A DNA stretch of 45,317 nucleotides from an uncultured Thermoleophilia bacterium. Lineage in GTDB: Bacteria > Actinomycetota > Thermoleophilia > UBA2241. The stretch is from the NCBI GenBank assembly GCA_963715985.1, contig CAVQSP010000005.1, forward strand, positions 1 to 45,317. The letters run 5' to 3'. Below the pieces are notes generated by a model. The model did not search any database. It was not told the origin of the DNA and saw only the letters and a list, made by a program, of their open reading frames with translations. The translations under genes were made by a program, and so were the position numbers. This document shows, in pieces, positions 7,487-42,138 of this stretch; the first letter of the stretch is position 1; each line of letters starts with the position of its first letter.

Positions 7487-8152
7487 TCAGGCCCGGATCA
7501 GGTAGCCCTTGCCGGGCACCGTGGTGATGAGCGAGCTGCCGAGCTTCTTGCGCAGATACGACACGTGTACGTCCACCGTCTGCGAGAACATCAGATCGTC
7601 GGACTCTCCCCACACCTGCTCGAGCAGCGTGAGCCTGTCCTGGACCACGCCCTTGTTGCGGAGGAGATGCTCCAGAAGCGCGTACTCGCGCGGCGCGAGG
7701 CTCACCGGGATGCCGCCCTTGCGTACCTCGTGGCTGTTGGCGTCGAGCTCCACCTCGCCGGCGACGAGCACGGGGCCGCGCTCCGGCGAGGAGCGCCGCA
7801 TGAGTGTGCGCACCCGGGCCAGAAGCTCGTCGATGTCGAAGGGCTTGACCAGGTAGTCGTCGGCGCCGCAGTCCAGGCCGAGCACCACCTGTCGCGTGGT
7901 GCTCCGCGCCGTGAGCATGAGGATGGGCACCGGCGAAGGCTCGTCACCGGCCCGCAGCGCCCGGCACACGTCGATGCCGTCCAGCTTGGGCAGGTTCAGG
8001 TCGAGGATGACGCACTCGAAGCGCTCGGAGAGGGCGCGGCGCAGGCCCTCCTCGCCGTCGTGCGCCACTGCCACGGCGTGCCCCGCGAGCTGCAGGAGTT
8101 CGCTGAGGTTGGCGGAGAGCTTCTCGTTGTCTTCGACGATGAGGATGGTCAT
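7487..8152 (-). CDS. OmpR/PhoB-family response regulator
   Basis: MTILIVED, ILDLNLPKLDG, LMLTAR, GADDYLVKPF, wHTH TVDVHVSYLRKKLG..ITTVPGKGY. Confidence 0.95.
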   Translation of the reverse strand: MTILIVEDNEKLSANLSELLQLAGHAVAVAHDGEEGLRRALSERFECVILDLNLPKLDGIDVCRALRAGDEPSPVPILMLTARSTTRQVVLGLDCGADDYLVKPFDIDELLARVRTLMRRSSPERGPVLVAGEVELDANSHEVRKGGIPVSLAPREYALLEHLLRNKGVVQDRLTLLEQVWGESDDLMFSQTVDVHVSYLRKKLGSSLITTVPGKGYLIRA

Positions 8153-8166
8153 GGGCGCTCCGGTCG

Positions 8167-8200
8167 ACGATAGCCGATGCGAGGTTAAGGCACCCTTACG
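8167..8200 (-). promoter_or_regulatory. Putative autoregulatory box plus -10 (CGTAAG-N5-CTTAAC-N11-TATCGT), overlapping the dedA stop codon
   Basis: Direct repeat with 11-bp period, 11 bp upstream of a -10-like hexamer, just before the response regulator ATG. Confidence 0.7.
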
Positions 8201-8847
8201 GCGTTCCTGCGCCGCCGCAACCAGGCGACGGCCGCGCTGACGGCCGCCGGAGCCAGGGAGAGAGCCACCGTCGCGACCACGATGACGCTCAGGTGGTCGC
8301 GCACCCACGCGACGCTGCCGAAGAAGTAGCCGGCCGCCACGAACGCGCCCACCCACAGGGCCGCGCCCGCGGCATTGAAGATGAAGAAGCGCCACGGGTC
8401 CATGCATGAGAGGCCGGCCACGAACGGCGCAAAGGTGCGCACGAACGGCACGAAGCGCGCCAGGATGACGGTCGTGCCGCCGTGGCGCCGGTAGAACGCC
8501 TCCGTCCGCTCCAAGTGGCGTGCCGGCACGAACCGGCCCAGCCGGCCGTCGAGGGCACGGCGCCCCACGTACCTGCCCAGCGCGTAGTTGGCGGCGTCCC
8601 CGAGCACGGCCGCCGCCATCAGCACGCCCGCGAGCAGCAGCGGGTCGAGGATCCCGGCGCCGGCCAGGGTGCCTGCCGCGAACAGCAACGAGTCGCCGGG
8701 CAAGAAGGGCGTCACCACCAGCCCCGTCTCACAGAACACCACGCCGAACAACACCGCGTACAGCCAGGCGCCGAGGTGTGCGGCCGCGGCGCCGAGGTAG
8801 GCGTCCAGATCGAGGGAGAGGTCGACGAGGCGGACGATGGCGTCCAT
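8185..8847 (-). CDS. dedA: DedA-family (SNARE_assoc/VTT) membrane protein
   Basis: FCETGLVVTPFLPGDSLLFAAG, GDAANY..G, ARFVPFVRTFAPFVAG. Confidence 0.95.
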   Translation of the reverse strand: MDAIVRLVDLSLDLDAYLGAAAAHLGAWLYAVLFGVVFCETGLVVTPFLPGDSLLFAAGTLAGAGILDPLLLAGVLMAAAVLGDAANYALGRYVGRRALDGRLGRFVPARHLERTEAFYRRHGGTTVILARFVPFVRTFAPFVAGLSCMDPWRFFIFNAAGAALWVGAFVAAGYFFGSVAWVRDHLSVIVVATVALSLAPAAVSAAVAWLRRRRNAVRVP

Positions 8848-8950
8848 GGGTATCAGCTCCGTTCGATGCGCTGGGCCGGTACGGGCGGAGTCTGACACGC
8901 CGGGTCATGGCGACACCACCCCAGCCGCCGTACCCCGCGTCCGGCGATGC

Positions 8951-8984
8951 GCTATGCGCCTCTTAACGTCGGGCCCCGCACACT
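8951..8984 (+). promoter_or_regulatory. Putative OmpR-family box plus -10 (GCTATG-N5-CTTAAC-N11-CACACT)
   Basis: Third copy with the same geometry, upstream of the secreted protein at 9053. Confidence 0.65.
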
Positions 8985-9052
8985 CAGCACGTGATCAGAC
9001 CACCGATCGCCCCATCGGGCGCCCATGGGCGCCCCGACGAAAGGAGATAGCC

Positions 9053-9451
9053 ATGAAGAAGCTCATCGCCTCGTTCACGGTCATCGTCGCCGCCGTGGCC
9101 GTGATCGCACCGGCCGCCGCGCTCGCCGGAGGACGACAGGCTCCCGAGACAGGTCGTCAGGGGAGCGTGTCGGGGATCCATGCAGGAGTGACCTGTCACG
9201 ACCCCTGTGACGACCCGTTCCAGCTCAAGGCCTGGGTGCGAGGCGATCACGCGAGCGGACTCAAGGTGAGGTTCGTCGTCCAGGGACGCGTCTTCACGGC
9301 ACGCACCTCGAGCAGCGGCTACGCCCACTACCACCTGGACATGAATCCCGCAGACTACCCGCAGGGTGAGGTCGTCAAGGTCGTGGCGTCCGTCGCCCAC
9401 GGAGGCGTGACCAAGACCGACACGACCTGGTTCAAACCGAACTACAACTGA
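9053..9451 (+). CDS. Secreted hypothetical protein (signal peptide, beta-rich Ig-like domain, CHDPC motif)
   Basis: RBS AAGGAG; MKKLIASFTVIVAAVAVIAPAAALA signal peptide; followed by hairpin terminator. Confidence 0.8.
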   Translation: MKKLIASFTVIVAAVAVIAPAAALAGGRQAPETGRQGSVSGIHAGVTCHDPCDDPFQLKAWVRGDHASGLKVRFVVQGRVFTARTSSSGYAHYHLDMNPADYPQGEVVKVVASVAHGGVTKTDTTWFKPNYN

Positions 9452-10109: not shown

Positions 10110-10162
10110 GGGCGCTCCGGCGCTGCCCGGCAGCCCGGTGCGGGCGGCCCGGCAGCCCGCCG

Positions 10163-12592
10163 CTACTGGACGGTGAGCTGGGTGGCGGCCGGCGCGAGCT
10201 CGCGGTTGCCGCCGCGGTCGGTGGCGGCGCACGCGAGGGTGTAGACGCCGGGTGCGGGCGGCTTCCACTTCCAGGTGGCCGCCGTCCCCGTCGCGACCCA
10301 GCCGCGCGACCCCGAAGTCACCACCAGGCCGGTGGCGTCGGTGATCGCGTACAGGAGCTCGACCTCGTCGCTGAACGCGTCCTGGGCTGTGCATGACAGG
10401 GTGAAGCTCTTGCCCAGCGCGATGCTCAGGGCGGCCGGGGTCGTCAGGACCGGCCGCTCGAGGTCCACGGCCAGCCTGCCCGCCGCCGAGCTCGTGCCGA
10501 GCGCCGAGGTGGCGGCCACCGTGAAGGTCAGGCGGCCGCTCGCAGCCGCCTCGCCGGTCTGGGTGAAGCCGTCCCACACCACCGCATGCGGACCGGCCTC
10601 GAGCTGCCCGAGGTCGAAGGTGCGCACCGCCTTGCCCGCCACCTTGACGGCGACCTTGACGCCGGCCGTGCGGGTGAGCGTGAAGCCCAGCGTGGCGCCG
10701 TCGTTCACGCCGTCGCCGTTGGGCGAGACGACGTCGGGCGCCGCGGTGAGGAAGCCCACCGTGCGGTCGAGCACCACCGGGACGGTCGTGCGTGAGACGT
10801 TGCCGGCCGCGTCGCGGCTCTCCACGAGGAAGCTGTACTCGCCGTCGGCGGCCGGCGCCAGGGCGCCGTCCGCCGTCACCTGGCCGTTCCAGGTGGCGGT
10901 CTGCTCCGCGTCGCTGGCGTCCCGCCACTCGGTGAGGCGCCGGCGCACCTTGCCGCCGGCGTCGAGCACGGAGACGCGCGTGGCGCAGCGCTCGGACGGC
11001 TGATACGTCACCTTGGCCGTCTCAGCCCAGTCGTCGCCGTTGGCGCTGAACCGGCCCGGCTCCGCGTCCGCGCTCGCCGGCGCCGGCGCCACCGTGTCGA
11101 TGACCAGGGCGACGGTCTTGGGTGAGGCCGCGCCGAGCGCCGTGGACGCGGACACCACGGCGCTGTACTTGCCGTCCGCGTAGGCGCGACCCTGCGGGTC
11201 CAGTCCCGACCACTCGATCGTGTCGTAGGAGCCCTCGCCGCTGAAGCTGCCCAGCCGCTCCCCGTTCGCGTCCCGGAGCTCGACGGTCCAACTGGCCGTC
11301 TTGGTGAGCCACAGGCTGAGCGTCGCGGAGTCGTACGACTCGTCGCCGTTGGGGCTGAAGCGCGCCGGGGCGCTCTTGGCCAGCGTGACGATGGGCGGCT
11401 GCGGCTTGCCGGCCGCCTCCAGGCGGACGGTGGGCAGCAGCGGGTACAGGATGTTGCCGGGGCACTCTGTGTTGTTGGCCTGGCGGTGACCGGAGACCAC
11501 GGGGAACGTGACGCGGGCGCCGGTCGCGAACTTCTCGCCGTAGTCGCAGCGGATACGCGCCGTACCCGTCGGCTTCAGATGGTGGATCTTGAGCTTCCAC
11601 GCGAGCAGCTTCTCGAGCGAGGCCAGCGCCTCGGCGGGAGGAGCGTCGGCGGCGAAGTTGCCGATCATCGAGATGCCGGCGCTGCCCCGGTTGAACCCCA
11701 GGACCTGCGCCCCGATGACCCCCCTCTTCATGCCGCCGTACCGGCCTTCGTAGATGGTCCCGAAGCGGTCGATGAGGAAGTTGTAGCCGATGTCGCTCCA
11801 GCCCAGGGAGCGCGTGTGGTACGCGTAGATGGCGCGCATCACGGCGGGAGCCTCGGCCTGCGTGTAGTCGTTGCCGCTGGCCGTGTGGTGCACGAAGATC
11901 ATGCGCACCTTGGCGTACTCGGGCCGGGCGCCGCGCAAGGATTCATCGGCGCCCCACTCCTTGCGCGTGACGATGCCGAGGCCAGCCGCCCCGCGAGCGG
12001 CACGCGTGGACACGGATGTGCCGAGCGGCAAGCCGGCGACCCGTACGATGCCGGAGGCGGCAGCGTCGGGGCTCGCCCCGGAGATGCTGGAGGCGCCGTC
12101 CAGGGCCGGGTCGAGCGAGACGACGCGCACGTGCGCGAGGGCGGCCGGCGCTCCCGCGCCGGCCTCGGCCCGCACCTGCACGTAGCGCGACGCGCCGGTC
12201 CACAGCGGCTCCGTGTAAGCCCTGGCCGGCCCGCCGGCTTCGCCGGCCAGTTCCAGCGGCACGCTGAACCAGCGGCTCCAGGTGCGCTCGTCGAGGCTGG
12301 TGCGCAGGCGGACAGTGACCGCTCCGTGCACGCCCGGCACTGCGCACGTGACGGCGGCCATCGTGAAGCGCCGGCCGGCGTCGAGCGTCTGAGGGGAGAC
12401 AGGTGGGGCGGCGGCGCTGCGCCGGCCGCCCGCCGCCGCATCCGCGGCCACCGGCAGGCCGCCGGCGACGGTGATGACGCGCATGGCCACCGGCGGCGTC
12501 TGCGCCCGCGCGAGGGCAGGGGACGGCGCCACCCACGCGGCGCAGATGGCCGCGGTCAGGGCGAGCGCGACACCGATGAGGGTTCTCGTCAT
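10163..12592 (-). CDS. Secreted N-acetylmuramoyl-L-alanine amidase (Amidase_2/PGRP-like) with FlgD_Ig-like repeats, paralog 1
   Basis: Signal peptide; VTRKEWGADES, FVHHTAS, GWSDIGYNFLIDRFGTIYEGR, GHRQ..TECPG; repeated SPNGD motifs and W(N/D)G repeats. Confidence 0.9.
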   Translation of the reverse strand: MTRTLIGVALALTAAICAAWVAPSPALARAQTPPVAMRVITVAGGLPVAADAAAGGRRSAAAPPVSPQTLDAGRRFTMAAVTCAVPGVHGAVTVRLRTSLDERTWSRWFSVPLELAGEAGGPARAYTEPLWTGASRYVQVRAEAGAGAPAALAHVRVVSLDPALDGASSISGASPDAAASGIVRVAGLPLGTSVSTRAARGAAGLGIVTRKEWGADESLRGARPEYAKVRMIFVHHTASGNDYTQAEAPAVMRAIYAYHTRSLGWSDIGYNFLIDRFGTIYEGRYGGMKRGVIGAQVLGFNRGSAGISMIGNFAADAPPAEALASLEKLLAWKLKIHHLKPTGTARIRCDYGEKFATGARVTFPVVSGHRQANNTECPGNILYPLLPTVRLEAAGKPQPPIVTLAKSAPARFSPNGDESYDSATLSLWLTKTASWTVELRDANGERLGSFSGEGSYDTIEWSGLDPQGRAYADGKYSAVVSASTALGAASPKTVALVIDTVAPAPASADAEPGRFSANGDDWAETAKVTYQPSERCATRVSVLDAGGKVRRRLTEWRDASDAEQTATWNGQVTADGALAPAADGEYSFLVESRDAAGNVSRTTVPVVLDRTVGFLTAAPDVVSPNGDGVNDGATLGFTLTRTAGVKVAVKVAGKAVRTFDLGQLEAGPHAVVWDGFTQTGEAAASGRLTFTVAATSALGTSSAAGRLAVDLERPVLTTPAALSIALGKSFTLSCTAQDAFSDEVELLYAITDATGLVVTSGSRGWVATGTAATWKWKPPAPGVYTLACAATDRGGNRELAPAATQLTVQ

Positions 12593-12787
12593 GGGACTCC
12601 GGAGGGGCCGACGCCTTCTTCGTTCAACGGCGGCGACCGACTCCCTCGGTCTGGCGAGCGACCCCGTGTCGCCGGGTCGCCCTGCGTTGCGTTCGGCTTC
12701 CCTAAGGATGACGCCCTCAGCCGGGGACGCAACCCGAGGCCGCGCCGGCGGCCGGCGGCGCCTGCTCCCGCCCGCCGCGTCCCCGTC

Positions 12788-22270: not shown

Positions 22271-23704
22271 TCAGACGCCCGTCTGTGCCTTGACCCTACC
22301 CGTCTCCACCGCCTCGCGCAGCGCCTGGAAGTCCTTCCAGTTCTGCTCGGTGTACGCCTCGGCGAAGTCGGCCACGGCCCTGTCGAAGGAGTCGCCGCTC
22401 CCCATGTAGCCCGCGATGGCGATGCGGTCGCCCGTCCGCGCGTGCGCCCGCGCCAGCGTCCAGGCGCACATCTCCGCGTAGCGCGGCCAGGAGTCGGCGG
22501 CCATGGCCTCCACGCTGAACGCGCCCTTGCCGTCCCACAGCTGGCGCACGTAGAAGTCGTAGCGGCCGCCGTCGAACCCGATAACGTGGTACGAGCCAAG
22601 CAGTACATCGCTCACCGCCTGCATCAGCTTCTGACCCTCCACGACGCGCTTGCCGGCGTGCCGGTAGCGGCTGCGGCCCACGAAGCGCTCCATCACCGAG
22701 GCCTGGGCCTGCTTCGACTGCAGGAACAGGGGGTCGGCGTCGTCGCGACCGGCGAAGTGCAGCACCCAGGCGCGCGTGCCCACGCTGCCCACGCCGACCA
22801 CTTTGCGGGCCATGCCGCGGAACCGGTAGAGGTCGTACAGGGCCTGCCGGTCGTGCGGCAGGCTCTCGCGGTAGCCGTGCAGCGCCGCCTCGACGGTGTG
22901 CGCGTAGTTCCTCCGCTCGCCGTCGCTGAGGAGCTCCTCAGCGGGCACCATCAGGGGAGGCTCGCTTCTGAGCCGGATCTTGCCGTCCACCGTGTACGTC
23001 AGTCGGGACAGCGCGCGCAGGTCGTCCTTGGCCACCGCGCGAGAGAGGTCCTTCGCGAAGCGCCGGGCATCGCCGCCGTGCAAGGACTGGCTCTGCTCGC
23101 GCAGACTGTCGACGTCGAGGTGCGCGTACCAGACGTCGACGGCGCGGGCCTCCGCCATCTCCATCATGGCCTCGCGGTACTTGCGCACGCAGGCGAGGAG
23201 GATGGCACGCCGCATCTTCGTGTCGAAGCCGCGGTCCTGGGCGGCCACCTCGAAGCTCGCGGCGAGGCGCTTGACGTCCCACTCCCACGGCCCCGGCAGC
23301 GTCTCGTCGAAGTCGTTGATGTCGAAGACGAGCCGGCGTTGCGGCGACTGGAACAGGCCGAAGTTCATCAGGTGAGCGTCGCCGCAGAGCTGGGCCGTCA
23401 GCCCAGAGACGGGCAGGCCGGCGAGGTCCGACGCCATCAGCAGGGCGCCGCCGCGGTAGAAGGCGGCCGGCGAGGTGAGCATGCGGCCGTAGCGGATGGG
23501 CACGAGGTCCGGGGCGCGCTCGAGCGCCTGCTCCTCGAGGAGGGCGACCGGATCGGGACGGTCTGCGGCCGGCTTCCAGTCGGCGTGCGCGGAGCGGGGC
23601 GCGCGCTTGCGCGCCTCCTTGCCGTGCGCGGCGCGCTCCTTGGGAGTCTCCTTGATGCGCTGCCTGATGTCCGGAAGCGCCTCGGGTACGACGCCAGCAT
23701 TCAC
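22271..23704 (-). CDS. DUF2252 domain protein (kinase-like fold)
   Basis: LVPIRYGRM..FYRG, QLCGDAHLMNFG, FDINDFDETLPGPWEWDVKRL, KVVGVGSVGTR, YVRQLWD.K, LARAHARTGD. Confidence 0.95.
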   Translation of the reverse strand: MNAGVVPEALPDIRQRIKETPKERAAHGKEARKRAPRSAHADWKPAADRPDPVALLEEQALERAPDLVPIRYGRMLTSPAAFYRGGALLMASDLAGLPVSGLTAQLCGDAHLMNFGLFQSPQRRLVFDINDFDETLPGPWEWDVKRLAASFEVAAQDRGFDTKMRRAILLACVRKYREAMMEMAEARAVDVWYAHLDVDSLREQSQSLHGGDARRFAKDLSRAVAKDDLRALSRLTYTVDGKIRLRSEPPLMVPAEELLSDGERRNYAHTVEAALHGYRESLPHDRQALYDLYRFRGMARKVVGVGSVGTRAWVLHFAGRDDADPLFLQSKQAQASVMERFVGRSRYRHAGKRVVEGQKLMQAVSDVLLGSYHVIGFDGGRYDFYVRQLWDGKGAFSVEAMAADSWPRYAEMCAWTLARAHARTGDRIAIAGYMGSGDSFDRAVADFAEAYTEQNWKDFQALREAVETGRVKAQTGV

Positions 23705-32397: not shown

Positions 32398-32748
32398 GGT
32401 GGACCCTCCTTGGCATGGGAGTCGCGTGCCGGAGTTCTTCCCAGTGCGCGCGGCGGCCAAGCGCCCGTGACGCTGGAGCACGAAGCCGACTGGTGCCCTC
32501 GTTTGACGTGTTCTTGCCCGCACGTCGTATGGTCCACGTCGGACGCGAACGGCGCGGTGTCGCAAGCAGAGAGGCCATCGATTCACGTGAAGAGGCTGAC
32601 CGGGAAGCGCTCGGCCGCAGCTCACTCGTCGTTCGTGAGCGGAACGACCGTCTCGCGCACGCCGCGGTAGACCCCACCCTCGTCCGACGCCCCGAGGCTC
32701 GGCACGTGAGGCGAGAGGGGCGTCTCGTCGGTCTGGTCGGGCGCGCCG

Positions 32749-33234
32749 TCAGGCGACGGGGCCGGTCGAGGCGTTGACCTCGTCGGCCAGAGCCAGGACC
32801 TCTGCGTTCTCGGGGATGTCGCTCATGTCGTGTCCGTAATGGACGAAACGCGCGACCCCGGCCTTGTCGATGAACACCTGGGCCGGCATCCGTCCGAGCT
32901 TGAACAGCTTCACCTCCTGCCCGTAGAGCTTGAGCACGCTGTGCTTGGGGTCGGGAAGGCCGACGAACGGCAGGGACTCGTTGCGCCAGTAGTCGGCAAA
33001 CGCGTCCGCGTCCTCGGGGCCGACCACCACGACTTCGATGTCGCGGGCGACGAACTGGGAGTAGTCATGGCGCAACTGCGCCATATGCCTGCGGCAGAAC
33101 GGTCAGCGGAAGGTGCGGTTGAAGACCAACAGGACGTTCTTCCTGCCACGGAAGTCCGAGAGGCTGACCATGCGGCCGGAGAAATCGGGCAGGCTGAAGT
33201 CGGGGGCGATCTGGTGCAAGGACACGCGGGGCAT
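32749..33234 (-). CDS. Selenocysteine-containing peroxiredoxin-like (AhpC/TSA, redoxin) protein, UxxC motif, 161 aa with Sec44
   Basis: RBS [86 protein letters not shown] reads continuously through TGA 33105-33103; hairpin directly downstream. Confidence 0.9.
33067..33105 (-). promoter_or_regulatory. Bacterial SECIS-like element
   Basis: ATGGCGC-AGTT-GCGCCAT perfect 7-bp stem with a G-containing loop, 25 nt 3' of the in-frame UGA. Confidence 0.8.
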
Positions 33235-33386
33235 CGTGATCTCCTTCTGGCGCGGCGGGATGTCGTCGTTGCAGTCAGGACTATCACACCTCGGTCGGCG
33301 CCGCCTCGATCTGGCCCCGCTCGTCGGCTCTGATGAGGCCGTCCGCGTCGGAGCGGTCGGCCCGCTCTCAGGAACGAGGGCGCGGC

Positions 33387-34241
33387 TTACCCGTCGAGGC
33401 CGAGACCCCCGGCAGAAGGCTCGTCCCCTGGGGCGCACAGCGCCGCGAACGCGCGCAGCGCTGGAGCGGCATGTCTCCCGGCATACGGTGTGCCGTGGCC
33501 GGTCGCCAGGACCCACGGGTCGAGCTCGGCCAGGGCGACGACCGACGCGGCCGCATCTCGCCAGTCACAGGTGAAGACGGTCGGTGGACCCGAGAGCCGC
33601 TGCTTGCGGCGCACCAGGTCCCAGAGCCAGCCGGCCCCGCGACCGCCGAGACGGCTCGACCAGGCCATCGTCAGGACGGCGTCGCCGGCGATCAGCGTTC
33701 TGTCGCCGGGCCGGAAGAAGGCGACATGGCCCGGCGTGTGCCCGGGTGTCGGAACGCAGACCCACTCGGGCAGGCCGGGCACGCCGGCTTGGGGGTCGAA
33801 GGGCCGGACGGCAGCGCCGAGATCGCTGCCGCGGACCAGCGCCTCCATGGCCCGCCGCGGCAGCACCCGCGCCAGCCAGGCGACCAGCGGCTCGGGGTAG
33901 AGGGCCGTGCCGTCGATGAACGGCATCTCGCCCGCCGGGGCCAGGATCGGCACGTTCCACGCAGCGGCCAGGCCGACGGCGCTGCCGACGTGATCGGGAT
34001 GACCGTGCGTGATGAGGATCGCTTCCGGCCGGCCTGCCACGCCGCACAGCCGTCCGGCGGTCTCGGCGATGATCCGCCCCGAGCCGGGGAACCCGGCATC
34101 GATAAGCACCCAGGACTCCCCCGAGCGCACGAAGTAGACGTTGGTGCCGCGGATCGGCAGCCGGTGCACGCCGCGGGCGACCTCGACACTCCTTGCCGAG
34201 CTTCTCGCCGACACTCCGCTCCCCCTCGATGCTCCCATCAT
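33387..34241 (-). CDS. MBL-fold metallo-hydrolase (exact start uncertain)
   Basis: NVYFV, LIDAG, THGHPDHVG, TPGHTPGH, IAGDA, ATGHG. Confidence 0.93.
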   Translation of the reverse strand: MMGASRGSGVSARSSARSVEVARGVHRLPIRGTNVYFVRSGESWVLIDAGFPGSGRIIAETAGRLCGVAGRPEAILITHGHPDHVGSAVGLAAAWNVPILAPAGEMPFIDGTALYPEPLVAWLARVLPRRAMEALVRGSDLGAAVRPFDPQAGVPGLPEWVCVPTPGHTPGHVAFFRPGDRTLIAGDAVLTMAWSSRLGGRGAGWLWDLVRRKQRLSGPPTVFTCDWRDAAASVVALAELDPWVLATGHGTPYAGRHAAPALRAFAALCAPGDEPSAGGLGLDG

Positions 34242-36676: not shown

Positions 36677-37209
36677 TCAGTCCTTTGTGTAGTCGTGGCC
36701 CAGGGCGAGGGCTCTCTTGTTGAGGTCCAGGAGCTTGGCTCTGCCTTTGCCGAGGATCTCGGCGAGGTTCTCCACCATGGCGTCGTAGGAGATCATGCTG
36801 CTCGCCCTGACCAGGGCTCCGAGCATGATCATGTTGGCCACCTTGATGGAGCCCAGCTGCTCCGCCAGCTCGCTCGTGGGGACCGCGAGGATCTCGATGT
36901 CGCTCCTCGCCGACTCGGTGTGCACGAGCGACGAGTTGGCGCAGAGAAGGCCCCCCGACTGCAGAGCGCCCTGGAACCTGACGAAGGAGGGCTGGTTCAT
37001 GGCGATGACGACTTCCGGCGACGACGCCACGGGGGAGGCGATCTCCTCGTCGGAGACGGCGACGGCGCAGTTGGCGGTGCCGCCCCGCACCTCCACGCCG
37101 TAGCTGGGCAGGTAGGTGACGTACTTGCCCTCGAGCATGGCTGCGGTGGCCAGGGTGGATCCCATGGAGAGGACGCCCTGCCCTCCGGATCCCGAGATGA
37201 TGGTCTTCG

Positions 37210-39709: not shown

Positions 39710-42138
39710 ATGACGGCATCGTTCACGGCGCGGTGCCCGCGCCTCTCGCGCACCCTCGCGATGGCCACGGTGGCCCTCGTGGTGCTGCTCGTCACCGCCT
39801 GGGTGACTCCCCGGGCGAGCGGCGCCGCGGCCGCGTGGCCGCGCAGCCCCTCAGTGAACCTCAAGACGCTGCGGGCGCCGGGCGGCTCGCTCACCGTCGC
39901 CGGGCCTGAGGGCCGAGACGCCGGCGCGCCCGTGACACTCGACGCCGGCGTACGCTTCTCCATGGCCGGCGTGGTCTGCGATGTGCCTTCTCCCGGCGCC
40001 GTCACCATCCGCTTGCGCGCAAGCGCGGACGGCGCGTCATGGGGTCCGTGGCTCACGGCCCCGCTCGAGGTCGTGGACGAACACGGCACTCCCCAGGCCT
40101 TCACCGATCCCATCTGGACCGGCGCGGCCCGCTACGTGCAGGTGCGGGCCGCCGGGAGTTCCCAGCGCGGACCGGCGCGCCTCACGGGAGTGCGGCTCGT
40201 CGCCATCGACCCGACCGGGGAGGCCGGGGCCGCCGCCCGCGTCACCGGCGTCCCCCGGCGCATCGCAGCTGCGGTGACCGACGTCGGCCTCACGGGCGGT
40301 GCCTCGGCGACGACCGCCGCACCCGCGATCGTCACTCGGGCGGAATGGGGGGCGGACGAGAGCCTGCGCTCCGGCTCCCCCTCCTACGCGCCGGTCGCTG
40401 TAGCGTTCGTCCATCACACCGCGAGCGGCAACGTCTACTCTCAGGCGGATGCGCCCGGGATCGTGCGCGCCGTCTACGCGTACCACACGAAGACGCTGGG
40501 CTGGGACGACGTCGGCTACAACTTCCTCATCGACCGCTTCGGCACCATCTACGAAGGGCGCTACGGCGGCGTCGCGCGCGGTGTGATCGGGGCGCAAGTC
40601 GGCGGCTTCAACACCGGGAGCACCGGCATCGCGGTCCTCGGCACATTCACGGACGAGGCGCCGCCCGCCGAAGCGGTGGCGGCGCTCGAGCGCTTGCTTG
40701 CCTGGAAGCTCGGCGTCCACGGGCTCGACCCGACGGGAAGCGCCACGCTCACCTGCGGCTTCACGGACAAGTACAAGAAGGGGGAGACGGTGACGTTCCC
40801 GGTCATCGCCGGTCACCGGCAAGCGAACCATACGGAGTGCCCCGGCGACGCCTTCTACGCACTGCTGCCGGCCATCCGCGCCGCCGTGGCCAAACGGATG
40901 GGGTCCGCCGTGGTCGCGACCCTGAGCGCCACTGCCCCGCTCATCAGCCCCAACGGCGACGGCGTCCTCGACGCCACAGAGCTGGACGTCAGCATCACCG
41001 CGCCCGCCGACTGGCGCCTCGCACTGAAGGACGCCCGCGGCCAGACCGTCGCTTCCTGGAGCGGTCAGGGGGCGACAGCCACCATCACCTGGAACGGGAC
41101 CTCGAACGGCGCGGACGTGCCCGACGGCGTCTACACCGCCCGACTCACGACCACCCCGGCCGGCGGAGACGCGACCGGCGCGACGGCGCAGATCACCGTG
41201 GACACGGCGGCGCCGCCACTCGCGAGCGCCGCCGCATCACCAGCTTCCTTCAGCCCCAACGGTGACGGCCAGACGGAGACGGCCTCCGTCTCGTACCGCC
41301 CCACCGAGGCCTGCGACATCCGCGTCGGCATCCTGGACGCCGGCGGCCGACGTCGTCCGCTGGCTTCACGGCTGGGACGCCCGGGAGTGCTCGCCCGTAC
41401 TCCGTCACCTGGGACGGCCGCGTCGCCTCCGGCGGCGGCCTCGTCGCCGCGCGCGACGGCCTCTACCGCTTCACGGTGGAGCGCCGTGACACAGCGGGTA
41501 ACGTCGCCCGGCAGGGCATCAAGGTCACCCTCGACAAGACCCTCGACTCCGCGGTCGCCGCCCCGGTCACGATCTCTCCGGACGGCAACGGCGTACATGA
41601 CTTCACCAAGCTCGGATTCACGCTGACGCGCAAGGCGGCCGTCACCGTGCGCGTCACGGTCGGCGATCAGGTCGTGCGCACCCTGAAGCTGGGCGACCTG
41701 GTCGCCGGCCGCCACTCGGCGACGTGGGATGGCCGGGCCGGCTCCGGCGAGTACCTCGCCAGCTGCCGGCCCGCGTTCACCGTCACGGCCATCTCGGCCA
41801 TCGGAAGAAGCAGCGTGGGAGAGGACCTGGTCGTCGACCTCTACCGCCCCAAGCTCTCTGCCACCGGCGGCACGCGTGCGGCCCCGGGAACAGCCGCGAA
41901 GCTCGGGTTCAAGGCGACGGACCCGTTCAGCGCGAGAGTGGACGTGAGCTACGTCGTCACCGACGCCAAAGGCCGCCGGGTCGCCTCGGGCCATCCCGGG
42001 TGGCAGCCGACGGGCGAATCGCTCAGCGTCACGTGGAAGCCGGCGTCACGCGGCGTCTTCACGGTGACCTATCGCGCCACCGACCTCGGCGGCAACCGCG
42101 AGGCGAGTCCCGCGCGCACCGTCGTCACCGTGCGCTGA
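39710..42138 (+). CDS. Secreted Amidase_2 + FlgD_Ig-like amidase, paralog 2; two apparent frameshifts (about 41347 and 41395)
   Basis: Colinear with 10163-12592: WGADESLR, FVHHTAS, GYNFLIDRFGTIYEGR, GHRQANHTECPG; the C-terminus continues through ORFs 41262-41489 and 41476-42138. Confidence 0.88.

Follow-up and report, generated by a model that had tools for sequence, protein, structure and literature searches.

Selenoproteins of the AhpC/TSA fold with a UxxC motif, in which U is selenocysteine (Sec), have been catalogued since 2004-2008, according to the tables and passages of three surveys (PMC2398784, PMC1794560, PMC9312934). The family table of a 2026 review places 'Prx-like thiol:disulfide oxidoreductase, PF00578, UxxC/UxxU' (Prx, peroxiredoxin) among the high-confidence predicted families and also has an entry 'Redoxin family protein, PF08534, UxxC', with HEU0032618.1 as its example (PMC13188914). 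In the Global Ocean Sampling (GOS) survey, 'Prx-like 1, pfam00578, UxxC' comprised 225 Sec forms against 2,740 cysteine (Cys) homologues (PMC2398784, Table 2), and a table of a 2016 survey gives the figures 28 and 32 for the Prx-like family (PMC5029168). Selenoprotein families are named by their conserved domain and Sec motif (PMC9312934). The Prx-like hosts in Table 3 of PMC1794560 are mostly Deltaproteobacteria and Clostridia, and Table 2 of the same paper reports Sec-decoding species within Actinobacteria and Chloroflexi. Here we describe a gene of this kind on the minus strand of a 45,317-nucleotide stretch of DNA (the window) from an uncultured Thermoleophilia bacterium (contig CAVQSP010000005.1, assembly GCA_963715985.1), in which codon 44 is an in-frame TGA.

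This TGA very probably encodes Sec, which would make the locus a genuine selenoprotein gene for a cytoplasmic thiol oxidoreductase of the Prx/thioredoxin fold, with Sec44-Pro-Phe-Cys47 at its active site. The Sec reading is preferred because the codon is TGA in every related locus retrieved, most distant relatives have Cys at this column, the codons over a downstream hairpin are frozen, this hairpin agrees with the published model of the bacterial selenocysteine insertion sequence (bSECIS), and a Shine-Dalgarno (SD) sequence precedes codon 1.

Reading frame, start site and codon 44

From the ATG at 33234 to the stop at 32749 the gene is one frame with a lone internal TGA, found in the minus-strand context AAC CGC ACC TTC CGC TGA CCG TTC TGC. 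The listing of open reading frames (ORFs) breaks it in two, 33103..33516 (ending in NRTFR) and 32749..33084 (111 aa, starting with MAQLRH), and translation with TGA as U joins the parts into a single 161-residue protein containing NRTFR-U-PFC. The feature coordinates are given in Table 1.

A genome scan of species-representative genomes provided relatives for comparison, taken as the best 80 of at least 565 confirmed loci (L001-L080). Their proteins are 67-85% identical, the genes have 60-99% nucleotide identity (median pairwise 72%) and a G+C content of 47 to 68%. By the submitters' labels, 57 of the loci belong to Chloroflexota (43 Anaerolineae), 19 to Actinomycetota (10 Thermoleophilia, 5 Coriobacteriia) and one to Planctomycetota, and three have no phylum label. 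Codon 44 is TGA in all 80, and TGC, TGT, TGG or GGN in none. The motif TGA-P-[FY]-C is present in 78 of them, with R replacing P in L004 and L035.

Within the window alone, a lone TGA in an otherwise intact frame would also fit a pseudogene or a sequencing or assembly error, where a Cys codon (TGC or TGT) was mutated or misread. Since 80 independent genomes from three phyla all carry this TGA and the protein is conserved on both sides of it, that explanation is practically negligible. In the 81 sequences (the window and its relatives) the residues flanking the TGA are conserved as protein and their codons vary synonymously: codon entropy is 1.83 bits at L35 (100% conserved) and 1.32 bits at P45 (98% conserved). 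Since amino acids are kept and synonymous sites vary over codons 1-43 and 45-50, both flanks of the TGA are translated in the same frame, which is under purifying selection at the protein level.

The short product reported by gene callers could nevertheless be taken at face value, in which case TGA would be a true stop and translation from Met51 (33084) would give a functional 111-aa protein, perhaps alongside a separate 43-residue N-terminal peptide. This is precisely what gene callers yield, and 64 of the 120 listed homologues cover just the C-terminal 65-76% of the query (105-143 aa, mostly 111-115, at 79-93% identity). The window's own entry (P0007) is among these 64, and many representatives of the more distant set begin at query residue 51 or 54. 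Such a mass of short C-terminal homologues is the signature of an in-frame stop that they have in common. However, of the 80 relatives, 74 have an SD-like core 4-16 nt before codon 1 and only two have one before Met51. The stretch from the TGA to Met51 (codons 45-50) also varies at synonymous sites while its amino acids are kept. Moreover, the 111-aa product would be devoid of the redox motif and of the first three beta-strands, and the Cys-form homologues are single full-length chains. Termination at codon 44 is therefore extremely improbable, and the 111-aa 'peroxiredoxin' from Met51 is an annotation artefact.

Of 22 more distant relatives, 17 carry Cys at the Sec column, and so do four close full-length homologues (P0003, P0013, P0016 and P0028). 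In the distant set the first-position Cys is retained even where the second position has Thr, Ser or Leu (4/22 rows). Near-full-length homologues in the protein search are 56-77% identical to the query. The initial annotation had placed the TGA at the first Cys of a CxxC motif in a thioredoxin/peroxiredoxin fold and had proposed a homologue alignment with Cys or Sec expected in that column; both the alignment and the PF00578 match (see below) bear this out, as they do the unbroken frame that it had read through the split ORFs.

The same alignments show other residues at this column, which could suggest that UGA44 is read as Trp, Cys or Gly through near-cognate decoding, a suppressor tRNA or a partial code change. 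In the close-homologue alignment 14 of the 20 rows spanning the column have W (W- or G-bearing entries P0002, P0004-P0006, P0008-P0012, P0014, P0020, P0058, P0085 and P0090), and in the distant set three of 22 have W and two have G (P0122, P0125, P0156, P0149 and P0180). Also in favour of such read-through, no Sec machinery was found in the window or in the flanks examined. However, TGA reads as W under genetic code 4 and as G under code 25, and all 14 W rows of the close set come from contigs of 1,450 nt or less, from which we infer that W or G at this column is a gene-caller artefact produced by code 4 or 25 on short contigs. No TGG or GGN codon was found among the 80 loci, the position is redox-active with Cys in true homologues, and SelB-dependent decoding has as its hallmark a conserved hairpin farther downstream whose synonymous sites are frozen. 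Furthermore, TGA is an ordinary stop in 21 of the 30 Pfam-supported ORFs of the window, including the terminal stop of the selenoprotein gene itself, and among the 79 relatives counted, 26 also have TGA as the terminal stop of this gene. Because of its use in the window ORFs, TGA as a stop codon is unreassigned in the source organism. Altogether, decoding of UGA44 as an amino acid other than Sec is very improbable.

Two database proteins differ at this column in other ways. P0015 (135 aa, 12-kb contig, 81% identity) has Arg at the Sec position (FTRPFC) and starts ten residues upstream of it; this may reflect a genuine CGA/AGA variant, a degenerate copy or an error in gene calling. In P0043 (161 aa, 14.5-kb contig) both flanks match the query and the residues around the Sec codon are unrelated (…RRTSCLSSIAPLPDPTAARHMAQLR…), which suggests either that the ORF call changes frame around the TGA or that this copy is truly frameshifted. 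A promoter and terminator scan of positions 32550-33450, covering sigma-70 consensus sites only, gave no match.

Table 1. Coordinates in the window of the proposed selenoprotein gene and its sequence features
Feature	Position	Strand	Remarks
Proposed selenoprotein coding sequence	32749..33234	-	161 codons plus terminal TGA (32749-32751); AhpC/TSA-Redoxin fold
Start ATG of codon 1	33234-33232	-	Read from the sequence
Shine-Dalgarno sequence AAGGAG	33241..33246	-	6 nt 5' of the codon 1 ATG
In-frame TGA, codon 44, proposed Sec codon	33103..33105	-	TGA in 80/80 related loci
Redox motif U-P-F-C, codons 44-47	33094..33105	-	Proposed Sec first, Cys47 second; C47 invariant, P45 98%
bSECIS-type hairpin AUGGCGC-AGUU-GCGCCAU	33067..33084	-	18 nt, perfect 7-bp stem, 4-nt loop; encodes M51-A-Q-L-R-H56
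Hairpin parts	5' arm 33084-33078; loop AGUU 33077-33074; 3' arm 33073-33067	-	

The downstream hairpin and the decoding machinery

The legend of Fig. 2 in PMC13188914 describes the bSECIS model as a loop of 3-9 nt with a G within its first two positions, a stem of 4-16 bp, a distance of 16-37 nt from the UGA to the loop and a minimum free energy of -7.5 kcal/mol or lower. The window hairpin lies within these ranges, with a 4-nt AGUU loop (G at position 2, followed by U), a 7-bp stem and exactly 25 nt from the UGA to the first loop base, the whole element spanning +22 to +39. The isolated 18-nt hairpin has a free energy of -11.1 kcal/mol, which was equalled by none of 200 shuffles. Most relatives have a 6-bp stem, and the values obtained in three of them were -8.4 to -10.8 kcal/mol.

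From the window alone this hairpin could be a product of chance, but it rises above chance because it is conserved in the relatives. Among the 81 sequences, Ala52 is encoded by GCG in 99%, Gln53 by CAG and Leu54 by TTG in 100%, and Arg55 by CGC in 79%, the remainder being CGT, which preserves a G-U pair. The normalised codon entropies of codons 52-55 (0.05, 0, 0 and 0.29) are lower than those of 75 other conserved codons (mean 0.735; Mann-Whitney p=0.0005). By comparison, thirteen other conserved Leu columns have codon entropies of 1.07-2.11 bits, and TTG accounts for 14.6% of the Leu codons elsewhere in these genes. Frozen synonymous sites over the hairpin support a function at the RNA level. 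In the RNA alignment, each of the six inner pairs is of a standard type in at least 75 of the 78 distinct sequences, with G-U replacing G-C in 15 distinct rows. This alignment leaves out L049, a metagenome-assembled genome (MAG) with a complete chromosome (CP059258.1), in which bases 10130-10190, inside the gene and just 3' of the hairpin, are masked with N.

These results uphold three further claims of the initial annotation: the perfect ATGGCGC-AGTT-GCGCCAT stem-loop with its loop 25 nt downstream (found at 33084-33067), its SECIS-like nature, and the decoding of UGA as Sec, for which the SD sequence at codon 1 rather than Met51 is additional support.

The first three bases of the 5' arm, the ATG at 33084-33082, are also the start that gene callers use for the 111-aa ORF. 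This ATG is invariant in the 80 relatives, which accounts for the uniform cut-off of the database proteins at Met51.

Several observations weigh against the Sec reading or the hairpin assigned to it. When folded in context the hairpin is unexceptional in this DNA of 70% G+C, with z -1.63 for 45 nt (11/200 shuffles as good) and z -1.43 for 71 nt (19/200 shuffles as good). The outermost A-U pair is retained in just 28 of the 78 distinct sequences, and L054 and L060 have a mismatch. Stem covariation is not significant, since 197 of 500 shuffles score equally high, and there is one compensatory change (L017, G-C to A-U), although the test is powerless with a stem this invariant. The RNAalifold consensus holds the four inner pairs alone, with the outer bases of the 5' arm paired elsewhere. 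Judging from its conservation, the core of the hairpin is well supported and its lower boundary is unsettled. At the gathering threshold Rfam gave no match in the whole window, so that the hairpin falls in no curated family of SECIS elements or other RNAs. At the protein level no NCBIfam model reached its cut-off, the best being NF040769 'SelL-related redox protein' (73.2 bits against 120, profile positions 3-99 of 173).

The decoding machinery was also missing from the sequences searched. ARAGORN detected no tRNA of any kind in the window and no tRNA-Sec in the flanks of the 80 loci, and no SelA, SelB or SelD domain was present among the 35 window ORFs. A six-frame regular-expression screen of 1.27 Mb of flanks for SelD-like, SelA-like and GTPase P-loop motifs found none, but this was a weak screen based on short motifs; NCBIfam models applied to 225 of the 354 flank ORFs of a length compatible with SelA, SelB or SelD likewise found no sel genes. 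These negatives weigh little, because the flanks represent about half a percent of each genome and one or two sel matches would be expected by chance.

Predicted fold and proposed chemistry

The translated protein matches PF00578 (AhpC-TSA) with 81.1 bits against a cut-off of 26 (E=8.6e-23, residues 8-129) and PF08534 (Redoxin) with 65.1 bits against 26.6. An AlphaFold2 model built with 34 sequences reached a predicted local distance difference test score (pLDDT) of 84.2 and a predicted template modelling score (pTM) of 0.83, and in it a helix of residues 45-56 begins directly after residue 44. The best Foldseek matches were 3drn Bcp1 (template modelling score, TM, 0.81/0.85) and AhpE 4x0x (TM 0.80/0.84), within a top set of 3drn, 3hjp (Bcp4), 5enu and AhpE (E 1e-12 to 1e-10, TM 0.73-0.85).

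The motif points elsewhere. In HMMER alignments U-P-F-C falls on the CPYC of the thioredoxin-family structure 3hdc, and against the TPG(C/S) of Bcp1, U44 falls on the Thr and C47 on the active-site position. Thr41 is present in 78% of the relatives, with mostly G in the others, and the residue seven before U44 is Val in 94%, not Pro. R115 is invariant and lies within a GRMPAQ-x-x-ID segment. The protein is thus predicted to have a peroxiredoxin fold but without the peroxiredoxin motif. Since Sec is first in UxxC, Thr41 is variable, the Pro is absent and the first-position Cys is kept in homologues, we infer a thioredoxin- or glutathione peroxidase (GPx)-type chemistry, in which Sec44 would attack and Cys47 would resolve the intermediate to a selenenylsulfide. 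In thioredoxin-fold enzymes the attacking residue is the one at the position matching Sec44, which is the basis for placing Sec there.

A working mechanism can be proposed on this basis. Translation starts at the ATG at 33234, after a strong ribosome-binding site. The hairpin, whose 4-nt loop has a G followed by U, would bind SelB carrying Sec-tRNA(Sec); as in known bacterial systems, SelB would compete with release factor 2 at UGA44 and deliver Sec there. Sec44 would occupy the N-terminal end of the active-site helix, the place taken in thioredoxin by the attacking Cys and in glutathione peroxidase by Sec, and would attack an oxidised substrate, either a peroxide or a disulfide. The selenenylsulfide formed with Cys47 would be intramolecular, and a thioredoxin-type reductant would then regenerate the Sec44 enzyme.

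Neighbourhood, distribution and known systems

Analysis of the ten neighbouring genes in the window showed that none recurs beside the gene elsewhere (two weak AMP-binding and two weak SDR matches aside), and no neighbour family is present in more than seven of the 80 loci. As no neighbour recurs, the neighbourhood gives no functional clue. In L013, a Coriobacteriia MAG, the gene (8639-9121, +) adjoins an MsrA/MsrB-type methionine sulfoxide reductase domain (7835-9178, -; E=1.2e-60), an oxidative-damage repair enzyme, at this one locus only. Hydrogenase-related genes are located 2-6 kb from the gene at L020:7001-8032 (-), L035:1299-3164 (-), L035:3363-4562 (-) and L026:14021-15478 (-). Those at two Thermoleophilia loci encode sulfhydrogenase-like alpha, beta and gamma subunits, and the one at an Anaerolineae locus a VhuA-like [NiFe] large subunit, all with scores below the curated cut-offs.

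The initial annotation had gone on to infer that the organism's other selenoproteins are probably mis-annotated; no further candidate for a recoded gene was found in the window. Three other TGAs (7487-7489, 22271-22273 and 36677-36679, all on the minus strand) are flanked in frame by sequence of coding-like composition, but each was read from the adjoining residues alone as the ordinary end of a gene, with another gene or a short tail following in that frame; examples are ...GKGYLIRA-stop ahead of a histidine kinase and, ahead of an ACT-domain gene, ...stop-GRM.... Elsewhere in the window, the ORFs at 10163-12787 (-) and 41266-42138 (+) both carry FlgD_ig and Big_13 Ig-like domains, to which the larger one adds an N-acetylmuramoyl-L-alanine amidase domain; the two may be paralogues that belong to the cell wall or the cell surface.

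In a quick tree, four Thermoleophilia MAGs were nearest to the window protein, although support was not strong; by this placement the window would probably derive from Thermoleophilia. The window protein is 77-81% identical to Anaerolineales, Chloroflexia and Planctomycetaceae rows, and the class labels are mixed on the tree, with Anaerolineae needing 11 changes and Chloroflexia 8. Small redox proteins are not usually this similar between phyla, which, together with the mixed labels, suggests horizontal transfer or errors in MAG binning.

These relatives could form a distinct and previously unrecognised clade of UxxC Prx-fold selenoproteins that is nearly always in the Sec form, has spread horizontally and carries an 18-nt SECIS invariant in both sequence and shape, although we consider this rather unlikely. 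Its basis is the Sec form in all 80 of the best loci from at least 565, and a protein identity of 70-85% among Chloroflexota, Actinomycetota and Planctomycetota. Judged by titles and abstracts, no paper singling out a Chloroflexota/Actinomycetota clade was found, and supplementary tables may list its members. If such a clade exists, the invariance of the SECIS could mean sequence-specific recognition by the SelB of the carrier lineages, and the element would be compact and portable, at a peptide cost of just M-A-Q-L-R.

For specialists, a UxxC Prx-fold selenoprotein is unsurprising and the knowledge of selenoprotein families is unchanged. It is noteworthy that the Sec form is broad and uniform in these lineages, with a sequence-invariant 18-nt SECIS, high cross-phylum identity and systematic mis-annotation. 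In public protein sets the gene appears as a 111-115 aa 'peroxiredoxin' without its active site, or as a full-length protein whose catalytic residue reads W or G, and any redox capacity or selenium use inferred from Thermoleophilia or Anaerolineae MAG annotations would miss the selenoprotein. The gene also marks its carriers as probable Sec decoders, in lineages that are common in soil, sediment and bioreactors according to the record titles. A short invariant hairpin with many natural variants and Cys-form controls makes it a clean test case for SECIS function.

Among known elements, the SECIS of the E. coli fdhF type is likewise a coding-region stem-loop just 3' of the UGA, with a small loop containing G and then U. 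Bacterial SECIS sequences are usually unrelated to that of fdhF, according to a passage in PMC13188914. The window hairpin differs in that it matches no Rfam family, and its recognition by SelB is putative.

Among known proteins, the Prx (TxxU) selenoproteins and the Cys-containing BCP/PrxQ and AhpE peroxiredoxins are alike in fold (TM 0.79-0.85 for 3drn, 3hjp and AhpE) and share the N-terminal APDFxL...G...V.LSDF region and an invariant Arg, here R115. They differ in that their reactive residue is last in TxxC or TxxU, whereas Sec is first in UxxC here and the P-x3-T/S-x2-C motif is absent; because of this difference, thioredoxin- or GPx-type chemistry would be expected. The 'SelL-related redox protein' family NF040769 has a similar thioredoxin-fold Uxx(C/U) arrangement, but with its score below the cut-off the gene is not a member. 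The 'Redoxin, PF08534, UxxC' entry is comparable by its description, and PF08534 was matched above its cut-off.

The closest known system is the Prx-like thiol:disulfide oxidoreductase family, which likewise combines a PF00578 domain with a UxxC motif led by Sec. There, as here, Cys homologues greatly outnumber or accompany the Sec forms, and a redox function is presumed in both. The initial annotation had stated that UxxC Prx-like selenoproteins were already known, and indeed both the reviews and the GOS survey list the family. By the domain and motif rule, rather than by alignment to the family reference WP_010940744.1, the gene belongs, as far as its sequence indicates, to this known kind of Prx-like UxxC selenoprotein, a type known since 2004. 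It differs from the published family in its hosts, which here are Chloroflexota and Actinomycetota MAGs, and in a SECIS that is nearly invariant in sequence.

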